From NCBI GenBank assembly GCA_000002435.2, contig CM018792.1: a stretch of DNA of 64,000 bases; one strand, 5' to 3'. This DNA comes from Giardia intestinalis (Eukaryota). How positions within the stretch are numbered: position 1 is the first letter of the stretch; every line of letters starts with the position of its first letter. Positions 11,217 through 25,398 of this stretch are shown piece by piece. Made by a program: the position numbers and the translations under genes. Under the pieces are notes generated by a model that saw only the letters and a program-made list of their open reading frames with translations, ran no database searches and had not been told where the DNA came from.

Positions 11217-13253
11217 TCACAGAAGATCCGGCTCCTCTAGAAGGAACTCGTTGTGGCTCTCTGACCCGGAATTTATGCTGCGTAATTTGCTAACTCGGAC
11301 CCCCCGCTTCTTCGCAAGCTTGACGAGGAACGGAGTAGCCACGATGAAACCGACGATGATGAGGCCCAAGATAACAATCGTAGAGATGAGTCCTGCACCC
11401 CTGCTGGAGAAGTTAGAGTCCAGCTTACCGCAGTAGAGACCCATGACTGAGCTGATGGCGAAAACCTGGCCAGACGTGCACCGATCGCAAGAGACCAGCT
11501 TCTTGCTGTTTGCCATATAGGACGCACATTCGCTCGGACACGTTAGACACGTATCCCCTTCAGCGAAATAGTATCCCTGCACACACACGCCAGACTCACA
11601 AGTAGTGTCTGTGCACTCTCCCTTGCAGCCTTCCAAGCACGGGGAGCACCGATCTCCATCAACTGAAATGCCATAGCCGGCTAGGCACTCGCTGCATGCA
11701 GAGCCGTCATATGTATAGACCTTGCAATTCTCTACTTGTCCTTTCGCACACTTCTGATCATCAGGTGATATGTAAAATCCTAGTTTGCAAGTGCCGCAAT
11801 ACTTTGCTGTTTCTGCGCACAGCTCACAGTTGGGATCCTCACACTTTTCCAACGTATTCTTGTAGCTATCATACCGATAGCCATTGAATCCTAGTATGCA
11901 GTTCGAAATCTCCGGTCCCTTGCACAACTGACAGTTATCCACACACTTCTTGCACGCACCGTCAGCTACGTAAAAGCCGCCCCGACACGTGCTGCAGCCT
12001 TTGGTTGGATCTGTGGTATTATCCGCGTGGAGACAGTTCTCTATCACCAAGCCCACTTTAACGCATGTGCCATTCTGCAGGACAAAGCCATCATCGCAAT
12101 TGGTGCAGTTTGTCGCAGTGTTCTCACAAGCAAGGCAGTTGTCGTCGCACCGGACACAGAGGTTGTCGTACAAGTAGTAGCCAGGCAAGCATTCAGTGCA
12201 GCGGAAGCGGTCGCTGCATCCTATACAGTTCATGATGGCCCCGTAGCAGGGGACGCAAAAGCCGTTTTCTAAAAACTCGTTACTCTTACAACTTTTGGTC
12301 GGTAGATCAGAGCACCAAATGCCATATATCTTTGGTCCTACCGTGAGTTGGGACGAGTCCGTACACCGGGTACAAACAGGAATGCTGTGTGCCTCGTCGT
12401 AGTAGCAGTCGGCACAATTAGTTGGACACTTGGCACACACCTTTGCGTACGAATGGTAATAGTAACCTTGTGCGCAGCCAGTGGAGAGACATTTGCCAGG
12501 AAACTGGCGCTCATCATCGGCGCAGATAGCGCAGCCTTGCTGACACGCCTGGCAGGTACTGTCAGAAGTGAGGGCATAGCCGGGCATGCAGAAAGTGCAC
12601 TTGCTGGAATCGCACGTGCTGCAATTGCCAGTACAACTTACACATGTTGCTGATTGTGACGTTGTTGATGGCGTAGAAAGCCTATAACCTGGCTTGCAGA
12701 CAGTGCATGCTCCATCATCTGCGCAAGTGTCACAGTTAGTACCGGTACAGGCAGCTGGACTCTTCGTCGAGGGGTTAACATAGTACCCTGAGGCGGCCCT
12801 CGTGCACTCAGTGGCGCTCTTGCAGGATAGACAGTTATCAGCACACTTTGTGCAGGGGGTTGATCCCGCGCCCGAGTGGAAGTACCCCTCTGCGCAGGTC
12901 ATGCACTTTCCTGTGTCATGGACGCACTTGCTACACCCTGTATATAAGTCCTTGGGCTCCTTGCATGTCCCGTCCTGTGCTCTGCAGTGGGCCTCGCTGC
13001 ACGCCGTGCACTTCCCCGGGCCGGTGCAGCGCTCACAGGTGGGATCGCACGGCTTGCAGTACCCTCCCTCGAGATACGCCCCGGAAGCGCACCTCGTGCA
13101 CGCGCCTGCCCCGGTGCACTCCAGGCACCACTTTATCGCCGCAGCGCACTCAACACACATGCTCCCGGTCAGGTAGTGGTTTTTGGGGCAGCTCATCTTC
13201 CCTCCACGCGAAGGCGCGGTGGCCAGAGCGACGAGCACCACCAACGCATGCAT
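11217..13253 (-). CDS. High-cysteine membrane protein (HCMP, VSP-like but without a CRGKA tail).
   Basis: It has a signal peptide (MHALVVLVALATAPS), dozens of CXXC/CXC motifs and a GGYC motif. A single C-terminal TM (LISTIVILGLIIVGFIVA) is followed by a ~40 aa cytoplasmic tail that does not end in CRGKA. The track start is a TTG; the ATG is at 13251-13253. Confidence 0.75.
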   Translation of the reverse strand: MHALVVLVALATAPSRGGKMSCPKNHYLTGSMCVECAAAIKWCLECTGAGACTRCASGAYLEGGYCKPCDPTCERCTGPGKCTACSEAHCRAQDGTCKEPKDLYTGCSKCVHDTGKCMTCAEGYFHSGAGSTPCTKCADNCLSCKSATECTRAASGYYVNPSTKSPAACTGTNCDTCADDGACTVCKPGYRLSTPSTTSQSATCVSCTGNCSTCDSSKCTFCMPGYALTSDSTCQACQQGCAICADDERQFPGKCLSTGCAQGYYYHSYAKVCAKCPTNCADCYYDEAHSIPVCTRCTDSSQLTVGPKIYGIWCSDLPTKSCKSNEFLENGFCVPCYGAIMNCIGCSDRFRCTECLPGYYLYDNLCVRCDDNCLACENTATNCTNCDDGFVLQNGTCVKVGLVIENCLHADNTTDPTKGCSTCRGGFYVADGACKKCVDNCQLCKGPEISNCILGFNGYRYDSYKNTLEKCEDPNCELCAETAKYCGTCKLGFYISPDDQKCAKGQVENCKVYTYDGSACSECLAGYGISVDGDRCSPCLEGCKGECTDTTCESGVCVQGYYFAEGDTCLTCPSECASYMANSKKLVSCDRCTSGQVFAISSVMGLYCGKLDSNFSSRGAGLISTIVILGLIIVGFIVATPFLVKLAKKRGVRVSKLRSINSGSESHNEFLLEEPDLL

Positions 13254-13857
13254 CAACAGCTGTCTAAAAGTATTAATTTTTAATCTTAGATCGTGTTATC
13301 AGTGGAAGTAGTGTTCGGATTATATGAAAGAGGCTCGCACATGACACAATCACCAAGGAGCAGATCACATCTCGGGTGGTCGGTGACCGAGGCCTGTGCG
13401 AACCCATTACAGGGGCGGCCCTATAACGGATGGGCTGCTCTCGGACAAGTCGCCCCATGCTTCTAGTGTCAGGCAGCACGCTACTGTACTTTGTAAGGTA
13501 GCCTTGGCCACGCACTGGCACACTAAGACACGATAATCGCCTTTGACATTAACTACTCGCCTAGAAGGCACGGGTTGGATGCCCTGTGCGATAAGCGTGT
13601 GCAGATCTGAGTCATGGCGCCACAAGTGACGAGCCGGCCACGGAGGGCCTTTGCGGACAGAACGAGTCTGACCTGTCCAGGGCTAACCCCACAGCTTCTG
13701 CTTGCCGAACAGGGGTATCTACTGACTAGATAGTAGGTCAGGTATGCCGGTCGCGGTGCTGGCTCTCAGTCTGCAACTGGGAGGCCAGCGGCCAACAGAG
13801 AGACAGTCCGTACCATTTTAAAGTAAAATCGTCGGGGAAAATCTGCTGCGGCGACAG

Positions 13858-14229
13858 ATGCCCTTCAGCCCCATTTCCGCGCCCGAGTACGAGACAAACG
13901 ACTGGTATGAGCCGACCGCCTCTGCGCTGAAGAAGATCAACGAGGCCGGGGAGCTGGAGCTCATCACGTTCCACGGGCCGTGGTGCAAGGACTGCCAGTA
14001 CAGCATCCCCGTCTTCAACAGGATCATGACGTACGTGACGAACGACAAGATCAAGGTCACCGTCGCCACCGTCGACAAGGAGACCCGCACGGACAGCGCC
14101 GGCCTTTGCGAGAAGTACGGCGTCAAGAAGGTCCCGTCCTGGGTCGTCCTCCGCGGGGGGAAGGAGATCGGCCGGATCGTCGAGAACTTCACGGTCTCCT
14201 TCGACGAGGACGTGGCCGCCATGCTCTAG
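13858..14229 (+). CDS. Thioredoxin-fold protein with a WCxxC active site.
   Basis: The active site is WCKDC (13981-13995). A thioredoxin-like C-terminal block (YGVKKVPSWVVLRGGKEIGRIV) matches the VPT..FKNG..V.R..G pattern. The gene is extremely GC-rich (~70 %). Confidence 0.65.
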   Translation: MPFSPISAPEYETNDWYEPTASALKKINEAGELELITFHGPWCKDCQYSIPVFNRIMTYVTNDKIKVTVATVDKETRTDSAGLCEKYGVKKVPSWVVLRGGKEIGRIVENFTVSFDEDVAAML

Positions 14230-14270
14230 GCCTTCCACCAGGAGTGAATTCTTTTGGCGCTTGTACGCTC

Positions 14271-14615
14271 ATGGAGAGTCCTTGCGGTTCGGGGGCGCGG
14301 CGGCTGGACGTGCTTGCGTTCATGCCAGACGAGCGCACGCAGAGGCTCCTCGTGGCCCAGAGGCAGCAGGAGTTCTCGGCGGCCGTTGTAGCACATCAGC
14401 CGCGGATCGCCGAGGTGCGCGTCCAGATGCACAACCTGCGGGACAGAGAGGGCTACGCCGTAAGGTATGGGGTCACGGCGGTCCCCACTTGGGTCTTTCT
14501 GCGCGATGGACAAGAGCTCGGGAGAATTGTTTGTGAGCCCCGAGGCTCGTTTGCAGAAGAGATAGGAAGAATCCTGGCCGCATCCACCCAGGAGCAAGAC
14601 AGAGAGAACAGCTAG
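14271..14615 (+). CDS. Tandem paralog of the upstream thioredoxin-fold gene that has lost the CxxC cysteines (predicted redox-inactive).
   Basis: It aligns to the upstream copy (YGVTAVPTWVFLRDGQELGRIV versus YGVKKVPSWVVLRGGKEIGRIV). Where the first copy has FHGPWCKDCQ, this one has FMPDERTQ. The track ORF 13980..14615 is the same frame read back through the upstream gene. Confidence 0.5.
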   Translation: MESPCGSGARRLDVLAFMPDERTQRLLVAQRQQEFSAAVVAHQPRIAEVRVQMHNLRDREGYAVRYGVTAVPTWVFLRDGQELGRIVCEPRGSFAEEIGRILAASTQEQDRENS

Positions 14616-14648: not shown

Positions 14649-17291
14649 ATGGCGTCTCTATGCTGCGTCGCATGCGCCAACCTTGTTCGCCCAGGAGCCC
14701 ATAGGATCCTGTGTCCGCTGTGTAAACTTGAATTGGAAACCCACGCACACAAACGCCAGGAATTAAAATGTCAGTCGTGCATCCTAACAGAGCACTTCGC
14801 AGACGACAAGCATAGCGCGGCCCACAAGAGCCTCATCTTAAAGGCGTACGTCTCAATGGAGCAAGCCCGGACCAAGGCGGAGGCTAGCCTGTACCTTGCA
14901 GAGAGCAAGAAGACGAGCATCGAGGAGAAGATCGATCGCAACGAGCTTGACAGGTTTGGCAGAGTGGCCACGACGATAGAACAGGCGCTCGAAGTCCAGA
15001 TCAGCAAGCTCGAAAAGATCACCGAGGAGAACTTCCTGGCGTCCGAGCTGTGGGTGCGGAACATGAAGGCCCGCCTGGCCTCCGTCTACCAGGGATGCAT
15101 AGCAAGCAATCAGGCAACGGTCGACTTCATTGCCCAGAGGGCTGGAAACCTGGTCTTCATGTCGACTGCGGCTGAGCTTCTCGCGTCCATGGAGGATCTC
15201 GCCACCAGACACATGCACCAGCTTGCCAGCTCCTCCACTGATCGCTCCGCACCAGCTGCCCATGCTCCCACTGGCCCTCTTATCTCGCTCATCCGCCAGA
15301 ATGTCATGGATACGCTCTCGGCGTCTTTACCGCTGTTCAAGTCTCACCACAACATCAAGGGCATCCTAGACTCCGTCGCCCTAGCAAAGAATATATACGT
15401 GGGCCACGCAGACCTATTCAAAATCCACATTCTCAAGACTGGTCTGTACGTCTTGCCTGCCGCATTGGTACTTCCCCCCAGAACAACCCTGGGCGGGGCT
15501 TCCAGCAGGGGCGGGACAGACGTCGCAGAGCAGAAGGCGCAGTGCAGGTTTGAGTCCCGCGTCACCCAGTCCCTTACCGCTAACAGGAAGCGTCGCTCTG
15601 TTGTGTACGGCACCGTCATACTCACAGACAATAGCACGATCTTCAACCTTCACATAATAGGGAGAGTGTACGTCATCGGAAGCAACGCGAACATCATCAA
15701 CTGCACGATCGAGTCCACGCCCGCCTACTCTTCAGAGTCCTTCACAGACCGGTACACGGGGCTACCCGGGTGTCCCATAGCGTCAAGGGACCGCTCCATG
15801 GCGTCGTCTGTCCCCCGGCTCCAGAAGCTGCTGAGGTCTTCGTCTCCCAACAACCTCTCGCTGGCAGCCATCTCGCAGGCTCTAGAAAGAGTGGGGGTGA
15901 CTCTAACTGCGGATTCGCTGGCGCACTTGGAGCGTGATCTTGCTACCATTAACCCGTGTCTCGTCGTGACCAACAGGTCTACGAGTACGCTACTGATTAA
16001 GTCCAGGATTAACTCGAATAGTTTGGCGAGCCTTCCATTCAGTCTGTCGCACAAGCTTCCCGAGAGCGAAAGCAGCCTGTATGTTGGGCCAAGGTGCCCC
16101 GTTCTTGTATCCTCGGCGTCCCAGCTGTACATTCATGGCTCCTCTGTCTTCTGCACACAAATCAACCCCCTCGCGATGACCACGAGCTTTCGAACCGTGG
16201 CGTTATCCCCCATCTTAGAACTCGACACGCAAAGAAGCTTGATGAACAGCGCTATCAGTCGCACACAGGGCTTTGGCGGACAAGGCAGCAGACATCCCAG
16301 GGAGTCCCGCAGCCTAGAGGCCGCCGAGGAGCCAGCCAAGAACCTTCCCTTCATGCTCACGCCAGACAGGTTTCTCAGGGATAGAGAGATGATTGTGAAG
16401 GGGTCCCTCATTGTCGTCAAGGAGGGCTCCCATCTAGCAATGAGTGATACTCACCTGTTCAACTCCTTTGTGGGGGTGTACACTTCCGATGGCTCCGTCC
16501 ACGCCAACACGTGCTTCATCAATAACTGCTGCGTGGGGGCGATTGTGGCGAACGACGCATACGATGCGCGGTTTGTCTACACTGTGTTTAGCGAAAATGG
16601 CATTGGTGTCATGATGCACAGGCTCAGGAACACATCAGCCCTCTACTTGTCGCGCTACGAGATGAGCTCCGTCTGCGGGCTTGTCATATCCAACACGGCC
16701 ATAGACACGAACATCAACTACAAGTACCGGGTGTCGGAGCAGAGAGCAGCCCCTGCTCCGGAAGCCCCTAGCCCAGCAGAGCAGGAGGAGGACAGCATCA
16801 TTGGGGGATCTCTAGTCTTCGACACAGTGCCCTCATCTGTGGTGCAGTCCCAATCAGGGGAGGCCACCGGAAAGCCCATGTACGGTACCCTGTCTCTTCG
16901 GACGTCCCCCGTTCTAACAAAGTCCACTCACCTCACGAGCGCAACGAAGCTGCCGGAGCACCATTGCATCCTCGTGAGCAAATGCGACTACCAAGCCTCG
17001 AACGTGTCCTCCCTTGCCATTGTCGAGGAGCATGCAGGCCACCACTCCATCAACACTGCGAGCTGCATACTGCTGCACAGGAACAGAATCGAAGTGACTC
17101 AGAAGCGAGCTCCTAGGAGATCCGTCATTCTTCAGGGGGAAAACGTTTCACAGTGGTTCACTAGCATTCCCGCGACAAACTGGATTATCCCCTCGGCAGA
17201 CCCCGGGGAGTACATAGAGATAATCCCGAGAGGGACCGACCTGGCGCAGATTCTGTCAACAAATCTAGTCAGCAATACGGCGACAATCTAG
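14649..17291 (+). CDS. Large protein with an N-terminal Cys/His zinc-finger-like motif, a coiled-coil and parallel beta-helix (PbH1/CASH-like) repeats; hypothetical.
   Basis: The N-terminus reads CCVACANLVRPGAHRILCPLC...C..C...H. An E/K-rich coiled-coil of ~100 aa follows. Further on are repetitive I/V/N/G-rich units (NTCFINNCCVGAIVANDAYDARFVYTVFSENGIGVMMHRLRNTSALYLS, VISNTAIDTNINY) typical of right-handed beta-helix repeats. Confidence 0.5.
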   Translation: MASLCCVACANLVRPGAHRILCPLCKLELETHAHKRQELKCQSCILTEHFADDKHSAAHKSLILKAYVSMEQARTKAEASLYLAESKKTSIEEKIDRNELDRFGRVATTIEQALEVQISKLEKITEENFLASELWVRNMKARLASVYQGCIASNQATVDFIAQRAGNLVFMSTAAELLASMEDLATRHMHQLASSSTDRSAPAAHAPTGPLISLIRQNVMDTLSASLPLFKSHHNIKGILDSVALAKNIYVGHADLFKIHILKTGLYVLPAALVLPPRTTLGGASSRGGTDVAEQKAQCRFESRVTQSLTANRKRRSVVYGTVILTDNSTIFNLHIIGRVYVIGSNANIINCTIESTPAYSSESFTDRYTGLPGCPIASRDRSMASSVPRLQKLLRSSSPNNLSLAAISQALERVGVTLTADSLAHLERDLATINPCLVVTNRSTSTLLIKSRINSNSLASLPFSLSHKLPESESSLYVGPRCPVLVSSASQLYIHGSSVFCTQINPLAMTTSFRTVALSPILELDTQRSLMNSAISRTQGFGGQGSRHPRESRSLEAAEEPAKNLPFMLTPDRFLRDREMIVKGSLIVVKEGSHLAMSDTHLFNSFVGVYTSDGSVHANTCFINNCCVGAIVANDAYDARFVYTVFSENGIGVMMHRLRNTSALYLSRYEMSSVCGLVISNTAIDTNINYKYRVSEQRAAPAPEAPSPAEQEEDSIIGGSLVFDTVPSSVVQSQSGEATGKPMYGTLSLRTSPVLTKSTHLTSATKLPEHHCILVSKCDYQASNVSSLAIVEEHAGHHSINTASCILLHRNRIEVTQKRAPRRSVILQGENVSQWFTSIPATNWIIPSADPGEYIEIIPRGTDLAQILSTNLVSNTATI

Positions 17292-18327
17292 GTCACAGGC
17301 GCGGATGTCGGAGGCCTAGAATGCTTTAGAGGGCACCAGAGGACAATCATCATTAGCTCTGAGTAGCAAGAACTGAGACTCTATTTAGGGCTGGTGCGTC
17401 TGGCGAAGGCATAGCAACAAGTGGTGTTTAGGTAAAGAATAACGCTCCCATCTCTGGACGGGTGTCTATGTCCATTTTGTATCTATAAAGGGCGTTGTCT
17501 GGCAGGAGGGAGAGGCGTCGATGAAGGAGGTTTGCATCTTGTACTCGCATAACACTAATCGTAGCCCTGGGCCCTCTTCTCAATTCGGAACGAATTAAGG
17601 AGTCTCTGCCGTAGGATGACCGAACTGGCCGTCATCTAAACCTCTGCATGAGCATAGCAGGTGCGAGCCAGTCAGCGCTTTTTCAGGGCATCCTCGTTGG
17701 GTCTGAGTGCTCACTAATAGTTTCTGCCTCTTCTTGTCTCGAGGTGTGTGTGCACTCGACAGCACCCGTGCAGGACGGCCGTCCCCACAGAGCTGCAGAC
17801 CCTGCCGCTCTGCGACGGGCCGGGCGGTGTGCCTGAGTGTGCCCCCGCTAAGGCTCTGGTTCCCGCAGTAGAGTCTGGGAGGGTGGTCCATGGGTCCAGA
17901 ACGAGCCTGCATACAAGGCAACTATCATGGCCGGCGGCACGAGGGGCCGTATCTCCCATCGAACCCTGCTGGGTGGTATCGTCATGGTGGATGAGTGAGG
18001 AGTAAGGATTCCAAAACTGGCTGAGACTTTTTGCAAAGTTTTATTCTCCTTAGTTGCTATTATGACTATTGAGACTGGTTCTTTAGATATCTGTATTTAA
18101 GTTTAAGGGTTGCATTTGTAAGTATCTACCGTATACTAGTAACTAGGTAATTATCATTAAGCGAGTGTTTGAAGTTTTCTTCTATAGAAAGAATTCTGCT
18201 TCGAGATTGGTTTTTGATTTTGCTAACAGATGCATTCAACGAAAACACTCTTTATTAGTTATAAAATCTAATATTATCTGTAATAGTCGGTATCATGATA
18301 TAATAAACACATCCAACCGAGACTTAA

Positions 18328-19047
18328 ATGTTGTTAGTGCCTCTCTACTTCATACTGGGCGTGCTTACAGCAACATGCACTGGCAGAGCACAGAATAACT
18401 GCGCAAATAATAAGTGCGAAATGCTCGGCGCTACCGAAATCTGCACCCAGTGTAACGCCGGGTATGTCCCCATCGGCGGCGTCTGCACTGCGCACAACGA
18501 TCAGGCCGTTGTCGCTGGGACCGGCGCCGGCTGCCAAAAGACAGGGGACACGGCTGTTGACGGGGGGTCCACCGTGTGTGAGAAGTGCACCGAGGCCAAC
18601 TACTTCCTCTTTATGGGCGGCTGCTACAAGACAGGCGAGGCCCCCGGAAATCTGATCTGCACGGCCGCAGCCTCTGGGAAGTGCAGCGCCTGTGTTGAGA
18701 ACGGGAATGTCTTCAAGAACAAGAATAGCAGCCCAACGCTCGGTACAGAGTGCATTCTGTGCTCAGACGACACAGGCTCGAATAACAACAAGGGCGTTGC
18801 TAACTGCGCGACGTGCACTGCCCCGTCGGCGGACTCGGGCACCGCCACCTGCAAGACGTGCTTGCCTGAGTTTGCTCTTGACGGGTCGGCGAATGCATGT
18901 ATATCTAACAGTGGTACTGGTGGAAACGTCAACAAGAGCGGCCTCTCCACTGGTGCTATTGCAGGAATCGCCGTGGCCGTTGTTATCGTCGTCGGGGGCC
19001 TTGTGGGCTTCCTCTGCTGGTGGTTCCTCTGCCGGGGAAAGGCGTAG
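18328..19047 (+). CDS. Variant-specific surface protein (VSP), short form (239 aa).
   Basis: It has a signal peptide, multiple CXXC motifs, a GGCY motif (FMGGCYKTG) and a C-terminal TM helix. The invariant VSP tail ...FLCWWFLCRGKA ends in CRGKA immediately before the stop codon. Confidence 0.85.
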   Translation: MLLVPLYFILGVLTATCTGRAQNNCANNKCEMLGATEICTQCNAGYVPIGGVCTAHNDQAVVAGTGAGCQKTGDTAVDGGSTVCEKCTEANYFLFMGGCYKTGEAPGNLICTAAASGKCSACVENGNVFKNKNSSPTLGTECILCSDDTGSNNNKGVANCATCTAPSADSGTATCKTCLPEFALDGSANACISNSGTGGNVNKSGLSTGAIAGIAVAVVIVVGGLVGFLCWWFLCRGKA

Positions 19048-19298: not shown

Positions 19299-21080
19299 AT
19301 GGACGTGTACATACCCCCAACTCTCATTCTAAAGCGCACAATGTCTACAAGGAATGAAGATTTTGTTTGTCTTGTCCGTTCTCAGCTGAGCAGCAAGCTG
19401 TTTGTGATCCGTGGGATCTATTTGCACTCCATGAATTCTGCCCAGTTGAATGCATTGGCACAGCTACGGAAACTTGTGGACCAGCTGGAGCATCCTGTGC
19501 TTCTTAGGCACTTCAAAATTGATCAAGGGATTGCCAATAAGTGTTTTGTTCACAGCGAGTACTGTGAGCTAGGATCTCTAGAATTGGAGCTTGTGCAGCG
19601 CCGCGAAGATGGGGAATATATCAATGAGCTTCTCATTTGGGAGTACATTGCCCAATTGGTTGATATAACACTTTTTATTGTCAGTCAAGTTGGCGTGGAA
19701 AATATGGATGGGCAGTTCTTTCTCTACCGGTTTTTCAAGCCATCCAACATCTTTCTGTGCGAGAATGGTTGTATTAAAACGGGCGATTATGGTTTCTTCA
19801 GCCCACCCACACGGCACACAGAGGTATTTCGCGTCGGGAAATGGATCAATTACGTAGCACCAGAGGTATTTCGAGGACAATCTCCAACTCTCCGATCAGC
19901 AATATTTTCGTTTGGTTGTGTAGTGTATGCATTGTGCACATGCACTGATCCGCACTTATTTGACGTTGGGGAGACAGAAATAGTGCCCCCAAGAGTGAGC
20001 CCGTCATTGGTGATACCAATCCAGTACTCTCTGGCGTTGCGGACATTAATGCATGATATGCTCAAAGTCAGCCCCAAAGATAGAATAACCTTTAGTAAGA
20101 TTGCACGCCACAAGTTGGTAGAGGAAGCACGGTATAGGGTGAGGGCTAAGCAACTTGGCCAGCAACAGTACAATCTGCCAGCAATAGCTGAGCCAATAAG
20201 ACCCGAATCAGCGGTGCATAATGAAACGTCTACTACTGAGTTAAACATCGTGAGCACCGAATCCCAACAACAACAGGCAGAAAGTCTTCCTACACTAAAG
20301 CACCGGATTATCAATCCTGTCATCACAGAGAAGGGCGTCATAAATTCACACGGACACCAGCTGTACTTTCTACGGACGGCAGGAATGCCCAAGAAGTACA
20401 TCCAGAAGTACAAGTCAACTACAAATGTGCTCCATTACGCTGCATCAACGCGCAATTTTGACCTTCTTGAACGGAGGCTCGATTTCGCCGGAGGGTTTGA
20501 CGATGACGGTCGGACTGCGTTGATGATATGTGTAGAAGTGGGGTTTATGAAGGGCCTCAAGGTACTACTTGAGTATGAGGCTAGAAAGCGGTGTAAAAAC
20601 ATCTACAAATACGAGCGTGTGATCTCCACACATCCCAACGCCCTTACCATTGCGGCAATACGAGGGTCTCTGGAGTTTGTTAAGGAACTTTATGACGTAG
20701 AGGGGGCAGACAAGAATCCAGACGGTTTGACGCCCCTTATGTGTGCCGCCATCAACGGAAAGCTGGATGTGGTAAAGTTCTTAGTGGTAAAACAGAGCCG
20801 ACTGCGATCTCCAGGAAACAAGACGGCGCTTATGCATGCTGCTGAGCACGGCCACACACGCTGCGTGGAGACTCTTTGTGCCTGGGAGATAGGGCTGCAA
20901 GATGACAATGGCATGACTGCACTGATGCTTGCAGCTATCAACGGACATTTGGGATGTGTTCGACAACTCTGCAACATGGAAGGCAACATGCGGAATAAGA
21001 ATAACTTGCTAGCTGTTGATCTGGTCAATGCAACACGCTACCAAAATATATATAAGGTGCTTTATGACGTCGAAGGTTGA
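19299..21080 (+). CDS. NEK-like pseudokinase domain fused to ankyrin repeats (Protein 21.1 family).
   Basis: A kinase-fold N-terminus carries YRFFKPSNIF in place of HRDLKPxN, so the catalytic Asp is missing. It has GDYGFF in the DFG position and a VAPEVF motif. Five or more ankyrin repeats follow (TALMHAAEHGHTRCVETL, MTALMLAAINGHLGCVRQL). Confidence 0.75.
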   Translation: MDVYIPPTLILKRTMSTRNEDFVCLVRSQLSSKLFVIRGIYLHSMNSAQLNALAQLRKLVDQLEHPVLLRHFKIDQGIANKCFVHSEYCELGSLELELVQRREDGEYINELLIWEYIAQLVDITLFIVSQVGVENMDGQFFLYRFFKPSNIFLCENGCIKTGDYGFFSPPTRHTEVFRVGKWINYVAPEVFRGQSPTLRSAIFSFGCVVYALCTCTDPHLFDVGETEIVPPRVSPSLVIPIQYSLALRTLMHDMLKVSPKDRITFSKIARHKLVEEARYRVRAKQLGQQQYNLPAIAEPIRPESAVHNETSTTELNIVSTESQQQQAESLPTLKHRIINPVITEKGVINSHGHQLYFLRTAGMPKKYIQKYKSTTNVLHYAASTRNFDLLERRLDFAGGFDDDGRTALMICVEVGFMKGLKVLLEYEARKRCKNIYKYERVISTHPNALTIAAIRGSLEFVKELYDVEGADKNPDGLTPLMCAAINGKLDVVKFLVVKQSRLRSPGNKTALMHAAEHGHTRCVETLCAWEIGLQDDNGMTALMLAAINGHLGCVRQLCNMEGNMRNKNNLLAVDLVNATRYQNIYKVLYDVEG

Positions 21081-21117: not shown

Positions 21118-22197
21118 ATGGATTGCGAAAGCAGATCTGCCGTACTCACTTCACCTACGGTATATGCTGATATTGGCGGCAGTTTGGTGAAGGTTGCACT
21201 GGTTACTCTGGTGCCCCAAGCGGAAGTCCCTCAGAAGACTCCAGTTCCGCCTCACAAAGTCTGCTCCAACGGAAGCTTTGACCGGTGCTTTTGCCCTCAC
21301 CTCACTATAGACTCTCCGCTTCTCGGCGGATCCATATTCTTCTATGTGTTTCCGACAACCCACAACCTGGAACTCTTTTTGAGCTTTCTGTCGGATGTGT
21401 GCTCTAGAAAGTCGTTGAAAGGAAGCTGCCTTCACTTTACTGGAGGCGGGGCTCTGAAGTATGTCGACCTCATCAAGACAGCGACGCTTGCTGACCGAGT
21501 GCAGTATCATGATGAACTACAGACAATTGTGGGTGGTCTAAAGCTTTTGTCGAAGCTTGGCTTAGAGGGCGAACTGCAGGAACTCACACCACATGGTTTA
21601 GAGTCGTTTAACGGTGTTCTCGATCATTTTCTTCTGGTGCAGATAGGGTCTGGGATATCCATTGTGGAGGTTACAGGAAATAAAACGACCAGGATTGATG
21701 GAAGCGCACTAGGTGGTGCCACATTCATGGGACTTAGTTCCTGCATATGTGGAGTCAATCAAGAGTTCAAGGACTTACTTGGAGCAGCACGAAAGGGGGC
21801 TGCTAACTCTGCAGACCTTTTGGTTGGAGACATTTGTAACTCCGAAACGTATTTAAATATGCTTGATCCAGACGTTCTAGCTGCATGTGGAGGGAAAATG
21901 CGAGACGGTGACATCGATACTAATTCTAAACTAGCATCTGTTCTACGAATGCTTGTGATAAACGCTATACACATATCTGTCTTGAATGCCCGCCTGACCA
22001 ATTCAACAATCATACTATTGTCTGGAGGTTTTATGGACTCCATAGAAGCAACCACAGAGTACTATGCAGAGGCTCTGTCTTGGTATGGCCAAGAGCGTTT
22101 AAAAGGACTCGTTGTAAGACATCACGGTTTCTTGGGTGTTCTAGGCATAATAACGGCTCTCAAAGGATGGTCTAGTGCAAATCTTCAGTTCAAGTAA
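21118..22197 (+). CDS. Type II (eukaryotic) pantothenate kinase.
   Basis: DIGGSLVKV matches the PanK DIGGTLVKL phosphate-1 motif. HFTGGGALKY matches the GGGAYKF motif. The size (359 aa) is also appropriate. Confidence 0.65.
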   Translation: MDCESRSAVLTSPTVYADIGGSLVKVALVTLVPQAEVPQKTPVPPHKVCSNGSFDRCFCPHLTIDSPLLGGSIFFYVFPTTHNLELFLSFLSDVCSRKSLKGSCLHFTGGGALKYVDLIKTATLADRVQYHDELQTIVGGLKLLSKLGLEGELQELTPHGLESFNGVLDHFLLVQIGSGISIVEVTGNKTTRIDGSALGGATFMGLSSCICGVNQEFKDLLGAARKGAANSADLLVGDICNSETYLNMLDPDVLAACGGKMRDGDIDTNSKLASVLRMLVINAIHISVLNARLTNSTIILLSGGFMDSIEATTEYYAEALSWYGQERLKGLVVRHHGFLGVLGIITALKGWSSANLQFK

Positions 22198-22200
22198 AAA

Positions 22201-25200
22201 ATGGCGCAAGAGCTCATCTCGGATGGCTACCGAGACGCGGTTTTCGTCGACCGGGGCTCCGCGGGGGCGCTGTTCCGCGCAGTGCGGGTACAGGACGGGG
22301 TCGTCGTCGCGGTGCGGGCCCTCGACCCGGAGCGGATCGGGGTTGCGCGCTGCGAGGAGCTCGCCCGAGAGCACACCGCGGCCGCAGCCCTCCCCCACCC
22401 CAGGCTCCTCGCCTGCGGGCCTGCGGTCTCGGAGCCTGACGCGGTCCTCCTTGAGACCGAGTGGTGCCCCGACGGGTCGCTCGCAGGGCTCCTCCGGCGG
22501 CAGCGGCGGGCAGGCCCCTTCTCTGAGGACCGCATCTGGGAGCTCGCGGCCCAGCTCGCAGAGGCGTTGGCGTTCCTCCACAGCCCGCTCAAGGCCCGGG
22601 GCGTCCTCGCCCACGGCCGCGTCTCACCCTCCGCCGTCCTCCTCGCCGGCCCGCGCGCGAAGCTCGGGGACTGTCTCCGTGCCCCGTCTCCACCGGGCCC
22701 GTACGCGGCACCAGAGGTCGCTCGGGGCGGCCCCCCGACACCTGCAGCAGACGTCTGGGCCCTGGGGTGCGTCCTCGTCGAGCTCTGCACCCTTCGCGCG
22801 CCCTGCTGGGACCCCGCTGCGCTCGCCGCAGACCCTGTGCCCGCTCTCGAGCGCTGCCCTGACACCCTCCGCGCCGCTGCCGCCGCGTGCCTCTGCGTCG
22901 ACCCCGCCCGCCGGATCTCCGCCGCGACCTTCGTGACCTTCCCGCCCGCCCTCTGGGCCCTCCACCGCGTCGAGCAGGCCGCACCCTCTGCGGTCCCTCG
23001 CGTTCAGTTATCATCCGCATTACTGAGATCCTCTGGAATTGCTCAAGGGTTTATGTCTCACCTCGGACAACAAGAAAACGTATTTTCTGCAGTTGCACAA
23101 AATGACCCCGAGATGCTCAAGTCGGCAATCCAGTCGCTCGGTGACACAGCTCCGCTAGCACAGCTACTAATGGAAGCGTGTGATAAAAAGGCGTACAAGG
23201 TAATGCCCCATCTTTGCAGACTGGTCGCTGCAACAAAGACTCCTATTACGTTGTCGTGGTGGAAGGGAAATCAGGTCACGAGAAAAACACTGCTTATGCT
23301 TGCTGTTGAGACACAGGCCATTGAAATGATTGAAAGAAACATGGATAGTCTATGTGCAATGTATGAGGATTGTACTGCGCTTATGATTGCGGCCAAAGAG
23401 GGAAAGTATCGGTGTTTGATGCATCTCCTTTGTGAGCTGGGTATTTCATCGTCTACGGGAAAGAGTGCCTTGATGTATGCAGCTGAGTATGGATTCTCTG
23501 ATTGTGTATCTCTCCTTCTGCCGGAAGTCGGAAAGGAAGATGACCATGGTTTAACGGCACATGCTTATGCGACTAAGAACGGACACGCAGGATGCATAGC
23601 TATTCTGTCTCAATACGAGTCAGAAACTGCGCACTCTAAAACTGACCTATGCAAACTTTCAGCGATTAGGCAGAGTGAAGATGGTAGCGAGCCAAGTGCT
23701 CCTGAACTTCCTGTGTTGGATGCCTCTAGATCATCTAGGTGTACCCAGTCAAAAAGCAGAATTCATAAGCCGGAACCCATGTTAGTGGAACCAGGCCCTG
23801 TCAATCAGCTCTTACTTAGCAAAACCACTGCCTCTACTGGACGTTTCATAGCTTCGACCTCTTTGAGCCCGGATGACCCCATCACAACGATACTATCTCC
23901 GATGAAGTCTCCAGACTCTAAGCAGCCACGACTAGTTAAAAGTGATACAATCAACGAACTACATGCGCTTGCTCGCGAGTCTCAAGATGAAGTTGTAAAG
24001 CCACTTTTGGCAACTCGCTCTGTAAGCCAGGCTAATCGTCAACCTCACCCGAAGACATCTTCTGATTACAAGAAGACATCTAAGCCCGGCAGTAGATCGC
24101 ACAGCAAAGAGCGAGACACTCTTGAAAATGCGATTCTACGCAACAATCCATCTGCTGTCGTCCTTCACCTTCATGATTTCGCCGCAAACCCACAGCCATA
24201 TGTGGACTTGGTATTCACAGAGAAAAAGTTCAAAGTCTTGCCAACTCTCTGCCGCTATCTTGCAAAAAAACACCTCAAGGCAAAAATACGCACCAGGGTT
24301 GCAACGCCCGTCGAAGAGTTAACATCTCTAATGCGAGCGGTGATAAATTGCGACCACCAGGGCGTGAAGGAGCATATAAGGGAGGCTGGTAATGAGTACG
24401 TGGGATGGCTAAGCTATACAGACACAACGGGCAAGGGATACATTCTGAGTAATTGCACAGCACTCATGATTGCAGCGGCAAGAGGAGACGCCGAGTGTAC
24501 AAAGCACCTCTTATGCGAAATGGGTGTATATTTAAACAGTAAGTGCACTTCTCTGACATATGCCATTCTCGGTGGGCACCATGAATGTGTCAGACTCCTG
24601 CTTCTGGAGTCTGACATCAGTGGCTGCACAATGCTTATGCGGTGCTGCTTCTTTAATAACCATAAGGAAATCCCTAATTATCTCACTGAAGCCAAGGCAG
24701 CTATAGGCCCCGGCCGCACAGCTCTTATGATTGCAGCGCAACTTGGAAACAAAGAAAGTGTAGAAGCTCTGGTTGACTACGAGGGCGGTCTGCAGGACAA
24801 AGATGGCATTACGGCTCTGTATCTGGCATCCAGTAACAATCAGCTGGATTGCATCAAGCTTCTTCTGGAAAAAGAAAAGCGGATCAAGACTAATGTCGGC
24901 TGGACAGCACTAATGGCAGCTGCGCAGAAGGGCCATGCAGATAGTGTGCAGCTCTTGTTGGAGGCAGAGAGTGGATACCAGAAAAGTGATGGCTGGACTG
25001 CCTTGATGCTGGCAGCGCAGGCTGGGCATGCGGATTGTGCATCCTTGCTAGCTTCCAAAGAGGCATGCATGACAAAGCCGGATGGGTGGACTGCCCTAAT
25101 GATCGCTGCTCAAGAAGGTCACCATCGGGTTGTCAAAGTCCTGATGAAGAGCGAAGCAGGACGGCAACAGAAGACAGGAATATCAGCCCTTATGTTGGCT

Positions 25201-25398
25201 GCACAGAGCGGGCACGATAGATGCGTCTTGCTCCTACGAGAGCTTGAGGCTCAGCTCGTGGACAAACGCGGATTGACTGCCCTAGATTATGCTTCCCAAC
25301 TAAAGGAAGATAACATCGATCGTGAACAGCAGGAAAAGCACGCTCTTTGTGTTTCATATTTACAAGCCGGCGGTTCTGGTAAGGACAAGACTAATTAG
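22201..25398 (+). CDS. Degenerate kinase-like domain (GC-rich, Ala/Pro/Arg-rich) fused to about 15 ankyrin repeats (Protein 21.1 family).
   Basis: The N-terminal ~270 aa keep kinase subdomain spacing (LHSPLKARGVLAHGRVSPSAVLL...LGDCL...APEVARG...DVWALGCVLVEL) but lack HRD and DFG. Many ankyrin units follow (TALMIAAQEGHHRVVKVLM, TALMLAAQAGHADCASLL). Confidence 0.7.
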   Translation: MAQELISDGYRDAVFVDRGSAGALFRAVRVQDGVVVAVRALDPERIGVARCEELAREHTAAAALPHPRLLACGPAVSEPDAVLLETEWCPDGSLAGLLRRQRRAGPFSEDRIWELAAQLAEALAFLHSPLKARGVLAHGRVSPSAVLLAGPRAKLGDCLRAPSPPGPYAAPEVARGGPPTPAADVWALGCVLVELCTLRAPCWDPAALAADPVPALERCPDTLRAAAAACLCVDPARRISAATFVTFPPALWALHRVEQAAPSAVPRVQLSSALLRSSGIAQGFMSHLGQQENVFSAVAQNDPEMLKSAIQSLGDTAPLAQLLMEACDKKAYKVMPHLCRLVAATKTPITLSWWKGNQVTRKTLLMLAVETQAIEMIERNMDSLCAMYEDCTALMIAAKEGKYRCLMHLLCELGISSSTGKSALMYAAEYGFSDCVSLLLPEVGKEDDHGLTAHAYATKNGHAGCIAILSQYESETAHSKTDLCKLSAIRQSEDGSEPSAPELPVLDASRSSRCTQSKSRIHKPEPMLVEPGPVNQLLLSKTTASTGRFIASTSLSPDDPITTILSPMKSPDSKQPRLVKSDTINELHALARESQDEVVKPLLATRSVSQANRQPHPKTSSDYKKTSKPGSRSHSKERDTLENAILRNNPSAVVLHLHDFAANPQPYVDLVFTEKKFKVLPTLCRYLAKKHLKAKIRTRVATPVEELTSLMRAVINCDHQGVKEHIREAGNEYVGWLSYTDTTGKGYILSNCTALMIAAARGDAECTKHLLCEMGVYLNSKCTSLTYAILGGHHECVRLLLLESDISGCTMLMRCCFFNNHKEIPNYLTEAKAAIGPGRTALMIAAQLGNKESVEALVDYEGGLQDKDGITALYLASSNNQLDCIKLLLEKEKRIKTNVGWTALMAAAQKGHADSVQLLLEAESGYQKSDGWTALMLAAQAGHADCASLLASKEACMTKPDGWTALMIAAQEGHHRVVKVLMKSEAGRQQKTGISALMLAAQSGHDRCVLLLRELEAQLVDKRGLTALDYASQLKEDNIDREQQEKHALCVSYLQAGGSGKDKTN

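Follow-up and report, generated by a model that had tools for sequence, protein, structure and literature searches.

The 64,000-nt stretch analysed here (contig CM018792.1; hereafter the window) comes from Giardia intestinalis WB, an assemblage A strain, and carries a kinase-ankyrin gene, GL50803_94927, whose first ~268 codons form an island of 75% G+C (GC). This tract is real, orthologous and old; its edges are the same in assemblages A and B, it involves all codon positions, and its composition has been changing in one direction. Measured per 200 nt, GC rises from 0.42 (22000-22199) to 0.73-0.78 (22200-22999) and returns to 0.48 (23000-23199), and 40-nt windows place the rise at ~22201-22230 and the fall at ~22990-23010. 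Against a 64-kb mean of 0.491 with a standard deviation (sd) of 0.058 for 200-nt windows, the tract lies 4 to 5 sd out over 800 nt. It is the sole stretch exceeding 0.70 GC in such windows, and among the 26 long open reading frames (ORFs) only that of GL50803_94927 contains a 100-codon block above 0.66 GC. Over codons 1-268, GC at the first, second and third codon positions (GC1, GC2 and GC3) is 0.813, 0.590 and 0.854, compared with 0.554, 0.429 and 0.464 in the rest of the ORF, which is 48% GC overall. The increase therefore extends to all codon positions, including nonsynonymous ones, and goes beyond the preferred codons, a pattern of the kind left by GC-biased gene conversion (gBGC). A first-pass annotation of the window had described ~800 nt at ~75% GC ending in a sharp boundary, which the 75% measured over 22201-23005 and the edges in 40-nt windows bear out; its value of ~45% for the remainder was slightly low, the composition there being normal.

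The ORF encodes 1065 aa and is identical to XP_001709561.1, KAE8303663.1 and UniProt A8B4D0 ('Kinase, NEK'). GL50803_94927 corresponds to GK189, which Manning et al. (2011; Table S1; PMC3218828) placed in Nek-Unclassified with 1:1:1 orthologs in WB, GS and P15 and annotated as 'Dead Nek - missing K72, D166'. Pfam Pkinase (PF00069) matched residues 18-242 at 75.3 bits (cutoff 31.7), and Ank_2 reached 289 bits in the ankyrin repeats downstream of the kinase domain; a kinase domain nearest to Neks and then ankyrin repeats is the arrangement of the Giardia Nek-ankyrin family. In an alignment with the active Giardia Nek GL50803_2483, VAVK is replaced by VAVR and HRDLKPDN by HGRVSPSA, and the Asp of LGD is retained. 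Judging from these motifs, GL50803_94927 has lost the beta-3 Lys and the catalytic-loop Asp and is not predicted to be a catalytically active protein kinase, while its DFG aspartate appears to be kept. The earlier statement that the domain has no catalytic residues is thus correct for K72 and D166 but appears to go too far for the DFG Asp.

The protein itself is reshaped by GC, the dead kinase domain being recoded toward Ala, Pro, Arg and Gly. Its 268 residues include 54 Ala, 28 Pro, 26 Arg and 17 Gly, whereas Lys occurs only twice, Met once and Asn not at all, in agreement with the Ala/Pro/Arg-rich kinase-like domain recognised at first pass and matched by Pfam. Gly, Ala, Arg and Pro together (GARP) make up 47% of the domain, compared with 20-31% in eleven related Nek kinase domains, and Phe, Tyr, Met, Ile, Asn and Lys make up 5.6%, compared with 18-29%. 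Although GK189 is a member of the group of dead Nek-ankyrin kinases of Giardia (PMC3218828), its GARP fraction of 0.47 sets it apart from the Giardia and G. muris Nek domains examined (0.20-0.31). Where it mismatches GL50803_2483, the GK189 residue has the GC-richer codons at 106 positions and the GC-poorer ones at 17 (p = 7e-17), and the GC-richer changes include the catalytic Lys to Arg replacement and the conversion of HRDLKPDN to HGRVSPSA. Codon choice for Ala, Arg and Gly is even-handed between the two strong bases (GCG ~ GCC, CGG ~ CGC, GGG ~ GGC). All 26 optimal Giardia codons end in G or C (PMC8393687). The codon choice does not resemble translational selection, given that only codons 1-268 are affected and that GC1 and GC2 are shifted as well. 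WB coding sequences span 39.1 to 81.1% GC with GC3s of up to 99% (PMC8393687), and other extreme cases are for that reason probably to be found elsewhere in the genome.

The tract is specific to this gene and common to its orthologs, and it is not a trait of the Nek family. The first-pass annotation had raised the alternative that all NEK-21.1 paralogs share the same split; the adjacent Nek (19299..21080) is 47% GC throughout, and the three best G. muris Neks (P0100, P0101 and P0110) have a flat GC of 0.50-0.57. Those three were also rejected as orthologs, since none adjoins a Fumble/pantothenate kinase (PanK) gene. Among the sequences listed in the Nek alignment of Manning et al. (PMC3218828), Ala-run motifs are rare outside GK189, which points weakly in the same direction. 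A general 5' GC gradient in Giardia genes was likewise rejected as the cause: in the 24 other genes of the window, GC3 of the first 100 codons exceeds that of the rest by a marginal +0.035 (17/24; Wilcoxon p = 0.05), compared with +0.41 in GL50803_94927.

The full-length assemblage B ortholog (BAH15c1, KWX11950.1) has the same kinase-ankyrin architecture, GC tract and boundary codon as WB. Over the same codons its tract reaches a GC of 0.80 and a GC3 of 0.955, with G or C filling the first ~262 third positions, a few excepted, starting from codon 1. At the 3' edge, third positions pass from all G/C to mostly A/T within ~8 codons, at the same place in assemblages A and B and ~17 codons beyond the end of the kinase domain as annotated in Manning Table S1. 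The P15 contig (assemblage E) ends 143 nt after the PanK stop, ~140 nt inside the Nek gene, and shows the same GC onset; its portion of the tract contains low-quality N bases, and over these first 140 nt it mostly agrees with assemblage B. The start of the GS_B contig lies inside the tract. Using PanK as an anchor to recover the tract onset in other lineages (a search that did not extend to G. muris), we obtained five Logan contigs from four further lineages, in which PanK is 89, 73, 72 and 70% identical, PanK-to-Nek synteny is retained, and the Nek N-terminus reads MTQELISD, MAQELISD or MTHELISG. Each of the five stops 28-73 nt beyond the PanK stop, where the tract starts, and these breaks point indirectly to its presence across the G. 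duodenalis complex.

Synonymous divergence (dS) between assemblages A and B is 0.29 in the tract and a saturated 1.3-1.7 in the rest of the gene; the corresponding nonsynonymous divergence (dN) is 0.051 and 0.12 (0.119), and protein identity is 90% (codons 1-268) and 79%. Because dS outside the tract is saturated while both lineages carry the tract, the tract must be old. Recent introgression between A and B was rejected as the cause of the low dS: at fourfold sites with G or C in both assemblages, C<->G differences amount to 8.7% in the tract and 12.2% outside (p = 0.57), and this match makes the tract the same age as the rest of the gene. A reduced mutation rate was rejected as well, since the AI and AII sublineages of assemblage A differ by 1.7% over the tract and by 1.0-1.4% over its flanks. 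With both controls normal, the synonymous sites of the tract appear to mutate normally and yet to be held to G or C. Without a maintaining force, a GC3 of 0.85-0.96 would not be expected to outlast a divergence that saturates neighbouring synonymous sites. The recent domain fusion suggested at first pass is contradicted by the shared architecture, tract and boundary codon in B, the same onset in E, and the saturated dS outside the tract.

Polarising the AI/AII differences with assemblage B revealed the direction of change. Within assemblage A the tract has undergone 12 changes from G/C to A/T (strong to weak, S>W), none from A/T to G/C (W>S) and 1 S>S, with one further site unpolarisable; the AI branch carries 8 S>W and the S>S, the AII branch the other 4 S>W. 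Elsewhere in the gene there are 17 W>S and 10 S>W. The 12:0 split departs from the equality expected at compositional equilibrium (two-sided binomial p ~0.0005) and, by a rough calculation, is what AT-biased mutation that meets no opposition could produce in a sequence of ~80% GC. Where AI and AII agree but B differs, 43 tract positions pair G/C in B with A/T in A and 11 show the reverse, and tract GC3 stands at 0.96 in B, 0.87 in AII and 0.85 in AI. The tract is thus eroding in assemblage A, and before the A/E split it was at least as GC-rich as it is in B.

Our preferred explanation, held tentatively and at somewhat less than even confidence, is a long-lived GC-favouring regime confined to codons 1 to ~268, most likely gBGC or mismatch repair at a stable, 5'-anchored putative hotspot. 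A recombination or repair hotspot would be anchored at the 5' end of the GL50803_94927 transcription unit and remain stable over time; GC-biased gene conversion or mismatch repair there would drive third positions to nearly 100% G/C, and the same process would push first and second positions, leaving the dead kinase domain enriched in Ala, Pro, Arg and Gly. The tract would already have been extreme before assemblages A, B and E split, would still be held near saturation in B, and in A, where the force would have weakened or stopped, would now be eroded by AT-biased mutation. On this model such a loss in assemblage A is to be expected because gene conversion biases composition only where copies differ, and allelic heterozygosity is 0.53% in GS (B) and <0.01% in WB (A) (PMC2723961). 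AI has also been reported as a recent asexual lineage, and the same study reports a higher GC for the 89 genes located in its called AI:AII gene-conversion events than for other genes (PMC12669663). The lineage dependence of the tract fits a process that needs heterozygosity or recombination. Gene conversion as the molecular mechanism is our inference, and so is any reason given for the sharpness of the 3' edge. Of the origins put forward at first pass, a localised mutational or recombinational regime is the one favoured by the data, as a long-standing regime and not a recent one.

Several observations weigh against this explanation. The 3' edge is a step of ~25 nt at the same codon in A and B, whereas conversion at a hotspot should give a gradient, and the effect is one-sided, the 3' end of PanK, 4 nt upstream, being 42-47% GC. 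For Leu and Val, codons ending in C dominate (CTC 27 vs CTG 2; GTC 16 vs GTG 4), and this bias, together with the C- and T-skew of the coding strand (339 C vs 267 G; 122 T vs 77 A), is not predicted by a plain G/C-favouring process. The polarised counts are small (13 sites), and in B the tract may have reached equilibrium instead of continuing to gain GC. P15 (assemblage E) presumably has very low heterozygosity, in which case its GC-rich first 140 nt also count against a force dependent on it.

A more ambitious version of the hotspot explanation, which we consider possible but doubtful, is that the tract would be both a fossil and a gauge of recombination-driven gBGC: a promoter-fixed hotspot would predate the assemblage split and would have filled ~260 codons with G/C to saturation, and measurable decay would set in once heterozygosity or sex was lost. 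If so, it would offer a read-out, from sequence alone, of when and where Giardia lineages recombine, and would represent gBGC recoding of a protein domain in a deep-branching eukaryote without observed meiosis. Sex and recombination in Giardia are a long-running question, for which GC held in B and decaying in A provides a cheap test for gBGC; the tract also offers a test for loss of recombination in the AI lineage.

Local GC-biased mutation without conversion, through error-prone or transcription-coupled repair from the transcription start or through a replication-origin effect, is an unlikely but substantive alternative. It would account for a tract that starts exactly at the junction of start codon and transcription unit and runs one way into the gene, for the involvement of all codon positions, and for the lack of CpG depletion (observed/expected 1.04 in the tract vs 0.69 outside); the C/T skew of the coding strand, too, points more to mutation linked to transcription or replication than to conversion. 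However, a mutational bias tied to the site should persist, whereas in both A sublineages the polarised changes between weak and strong bases are exclusively S>W (12, with 0 W>S, besides 1 S>S), so that mutation plus fixation at the site is currently AT-biased in A, and the mere +0.035 of GC3 in the other 24 genes of the window indicates no general transcription-linked effect of this size.

Selection on the GC-rich sequence itself appears less likely still. It could act on DNA or chromatin, on mRNA stability or localisation, on avoidance of cryptic promoters and poly(A) signals, or on an Ala/Pro/Arg-rich surface; AT-rich promoters and poly(A) signals are common in Giardia. Edges that are sharp and fall on identical codons in A and B suit such selection, as do the higher identity (90% vs 79%), the lower dN (0.051 vs 0.119) and the strong constraint on synonymous sites. 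Against it, folding of the tract mRNA is no better than that of dinucleotide shuffles (minimum free energy z = -0.02), G-quadruplexes are not enriched (one canonical motif in the tract, on the template strand), and Rfam gave no match above threshold in the tract or the whole 64-kb window, with no rRNA similarity; on the folding result and the absence of Rfam matches, a structured-RNA or rRNA-derived tract was likewise rejected. The check for repeats and low complexity turned up nothing but two trivial 2-copy repeats (8-9 nt). A GC3 of 0.96 cannot come from selection on the protein, and translational selection would cover the whole gene and optimal codons only. Moreover, the tract erodes in assemblage A without sign of compensation, and the neighbouring Nek, GL50803_2483 and its relatives, and the three G. 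muris Neks all manage without one.

A chimeric origin, in which the kinase segment was anciently pasted from a GC-rich source (horizontal, paralogous, or the 75%-GC rDNA neighbourhood) and has not decayed, is very improbable. The step-like junctions at both ends would suit it, and Giardia rDNA is likewise ~75% GC (PMC10123126). A word-index homolog search with the 275-aa domain returned only grass MAPKKK17/18 at 33-40% identity, missing the query's own cluster. We gave these matches no weight as a sign of kinship and read them as composition-driven, since their genes are GC-rich, their proteins are likewise Ala/Arg/Pro-rich and their scores are weaker. In an exhaustive HMMER scan of 1.84 billion representative proteins, no relative exceeded ~43% identity, and that over partial stretches. 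The best single-domain match was GL50803_2483 (E 7e-33, 35-37% identity; pairwise 35% over 252 aa, E 3e-47), sharing the motifs RATRVQDxVVVAV, CPDGSL and APEVARG. One multi-kinase protein (P0094) scored higher overall through four matched stretches, and the other top matches were Giardia and G. muris Neks of normal composition. With a Giardia Nek bearing Nek-specific motifs as the closest single-domain relative and several Giardia and G. muris Neks among the top matches, a foreign or horizontally transferred segment was rejected. The scan offered no donor above 37% identity, nor does the tract resemble rRNA; conversion from a GC-rich paralog, as proposed at first pass, lacks a donor there too, the nearest Giardia Neks having normal amino-acid composition. 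Even a pasted segment would still need a local GC-favouring force to keep GC3 at 0.85-0.96. An assembly or sequencing artefact, or a mis-joined contig, is almost certainly not the answer: although 454 and short-read contigs are interrupted within the tract or at it (P15, GS_B, BAH15c1 and eight Logan contigs), such breaks are the expected outcome of GC coverage bias. The tract encodes a recognisable kinase domain in frame, 69 contigs carry the identical protein, in old and in 2.76-Mb chromosome-scale WB records, and independent AII assemblies of 66-141 kb as well as the BAH15c1 contig (B) span it.

The tract adds a new case to a known kind of phenomenon, that of local GC-biased segments inside genes. 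It behaves like the GC peaks that gBGC drives in genes of grasses, birds and mammals; gBGC has been reported in rice (PMC13473671). It shares with gBGC hotspots and the 5' GC3 enrichment of grass genes a ~1-kb GC peak at the 5' end of a gene with GC3 near 100%, the spill-over to first and second positions, a Gly/Ala/Arg/Pro-rich protein, and persistence across species splits. It differs in being a step and not a gradient, in being, within the 64-kb window, a single outlier gene and not one of a genome-wide class, and in belonging to an organism without observed meiosis, conversion at the locus being a proposal. Giardia rDNA, spacers included, also stands at ~75% GC, and telomere-proximal gBGC has been put forward to explain it (PMC10123126); the two agree in GC level, genome and suggested cause, whereas the tract shows no rRNA similarity and is a single-copy protein-coding segment in an ordinary gene neighbourhood. 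The 'hidden' ultra-GC-rich avian genes (PMC6792250, PMC9516821) likewise drop out of 454 and Illumina assemblies, but here only a single domain-sized portion of a gene is concerned, the rest of the genome being 49% GC.

All 454 and short-read assemblies that we inspected are interrupted at the tract or within it (contig L005 at 12962-12976; L001 and L006 at their starts; L002-L004 and L012-L016 at their ends). Because of these breaks, public gene sets lack the orthologous kinase domain or label it 'partial': it is missing from the GS and P15 entries of the 2011 kinome alignment, and ESU41264.1 carries the label 'partial'. Among the rows listed in the 2011 Nek alignment (PMC3218828), that of GK189_P15 is empty and a GS row is absent. 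The kinome paper does not mention GC (PMC3218828), and our literature search found no paper describing the tract and none naming GL50803_94927 or its accessions. The locus is thus better pictured as a conserved, gene-specific compositional island in which a pseudokinase domain has been rewritten than as a recent chimera. It also carries a warning for assembly and annotation, as the tract breaks 454 and short-read assemblies and its composition appears to attract spurious homologs such as the grass MAPKKKs.

The coordinates of the features are collected in the table below. The PanK stop lies 3 nt upstream of GL50803_94927, and another Nek, the adjacent one of 47% GC, lies upstream of PanK. The AT-rich junction between the two genes is presumed, on grounds general to Giardia, to hold the Nek promoter/initiator and the PanK poly(A) signal. 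The open frames of 140-250 aa noted in several frames at first pass are present, with 253 aa in a second + frame and 157, 212, 143 and 113 aa on the - strand. In 1000 simulated sequences with the same protein and codon usage, however, alternative frames open for at least 113 codons numbered 4.3 on average, compared with 4 observed. Overlapping or antisense genes in the tract were rejected on this count, which is no more than chance; the frames are open because stop codons are scarce at 75% GC.

Features of GL50803_94927 and its surroundings, with positions in the 64,000-nt window
Feature	Position	Strand	Basis
Whole gene GL50803_94927, predicted Nek pseudokinase with ankyrin repeats	22201..25398	+	ORF, exact-sequence match, Manning Table S1, Pfam
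GC-rich tract, codons 1 to ~268, dead Nek kinase domain	22201..23005	+	Composition, Pfam Pkinase, assemblage B tract
Remainder of ORF, normal composition (48% GC, GC3 0.46), linkers and ankyrin repeats	23006..25398	+	Composition, Pfam
5' edge, AT-rich junction 'AAGTAAAAAATG', PanK stop and Nek start codons 3 nt apart	22190..22203	+	Sequence
3' edge, codons ~262-268	22985..23010	+	Third-position S/W strings, 40-nt GC windows, Manning domain end
Pantothenate kinase 4 (PanK, Fumble), GC 0.47, conserved syntenic neighbour	21118..22197	+	ORF, sequence match
Alternative-frame ORFs within the tract	22175..22936	+	ORF list
Alternative-frame ORFs within the tract	22141..22614, 22227..22865, 22589..23020, 22624..22965	-	ORF list

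Other segments of elevated GC were observed in the window. A Cys-rich VSP/HCMP-like gene on the - strand (11217-13253) has a GC3 of 0.81 and a GC of 0.66 in its first 100 codons and a GC3 of ~0.57 in the rest, a 5' enrichment milder than that of the tract; the GS genome paper places VSP regions in higher-GC islands. The segment at 13738-14615 is 0.66 GC and carries long overlapping ORFs of 166 aa (-) and 211 aa (+), and the syntenic P15 annotation is a 123-aa thioredoxin gene (L005 4811-5182). Between an 880-aa gene (14649..17291) and a VSP-like gene (18328..19047), ~1 kb (17300-18328) is free of ORFs of at least 110 aa and includes a 350-nt island of 0.675 GC at 17651-18000. This ~1 kb has no Rfam match and may represent either the remains of a VSP gene or an RNA that has escaped annotation. 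In G. muris, a ~150-nt spike of 0.70-0.75 GC on CM016928.1 (L007 7776-7975) marks the 5' end of an unannotated gene beside a Nek, coding for 362 aa rich in Pro, Ala, Arg and Ser; the spike is far smaller than the tract of GL50803_94927.

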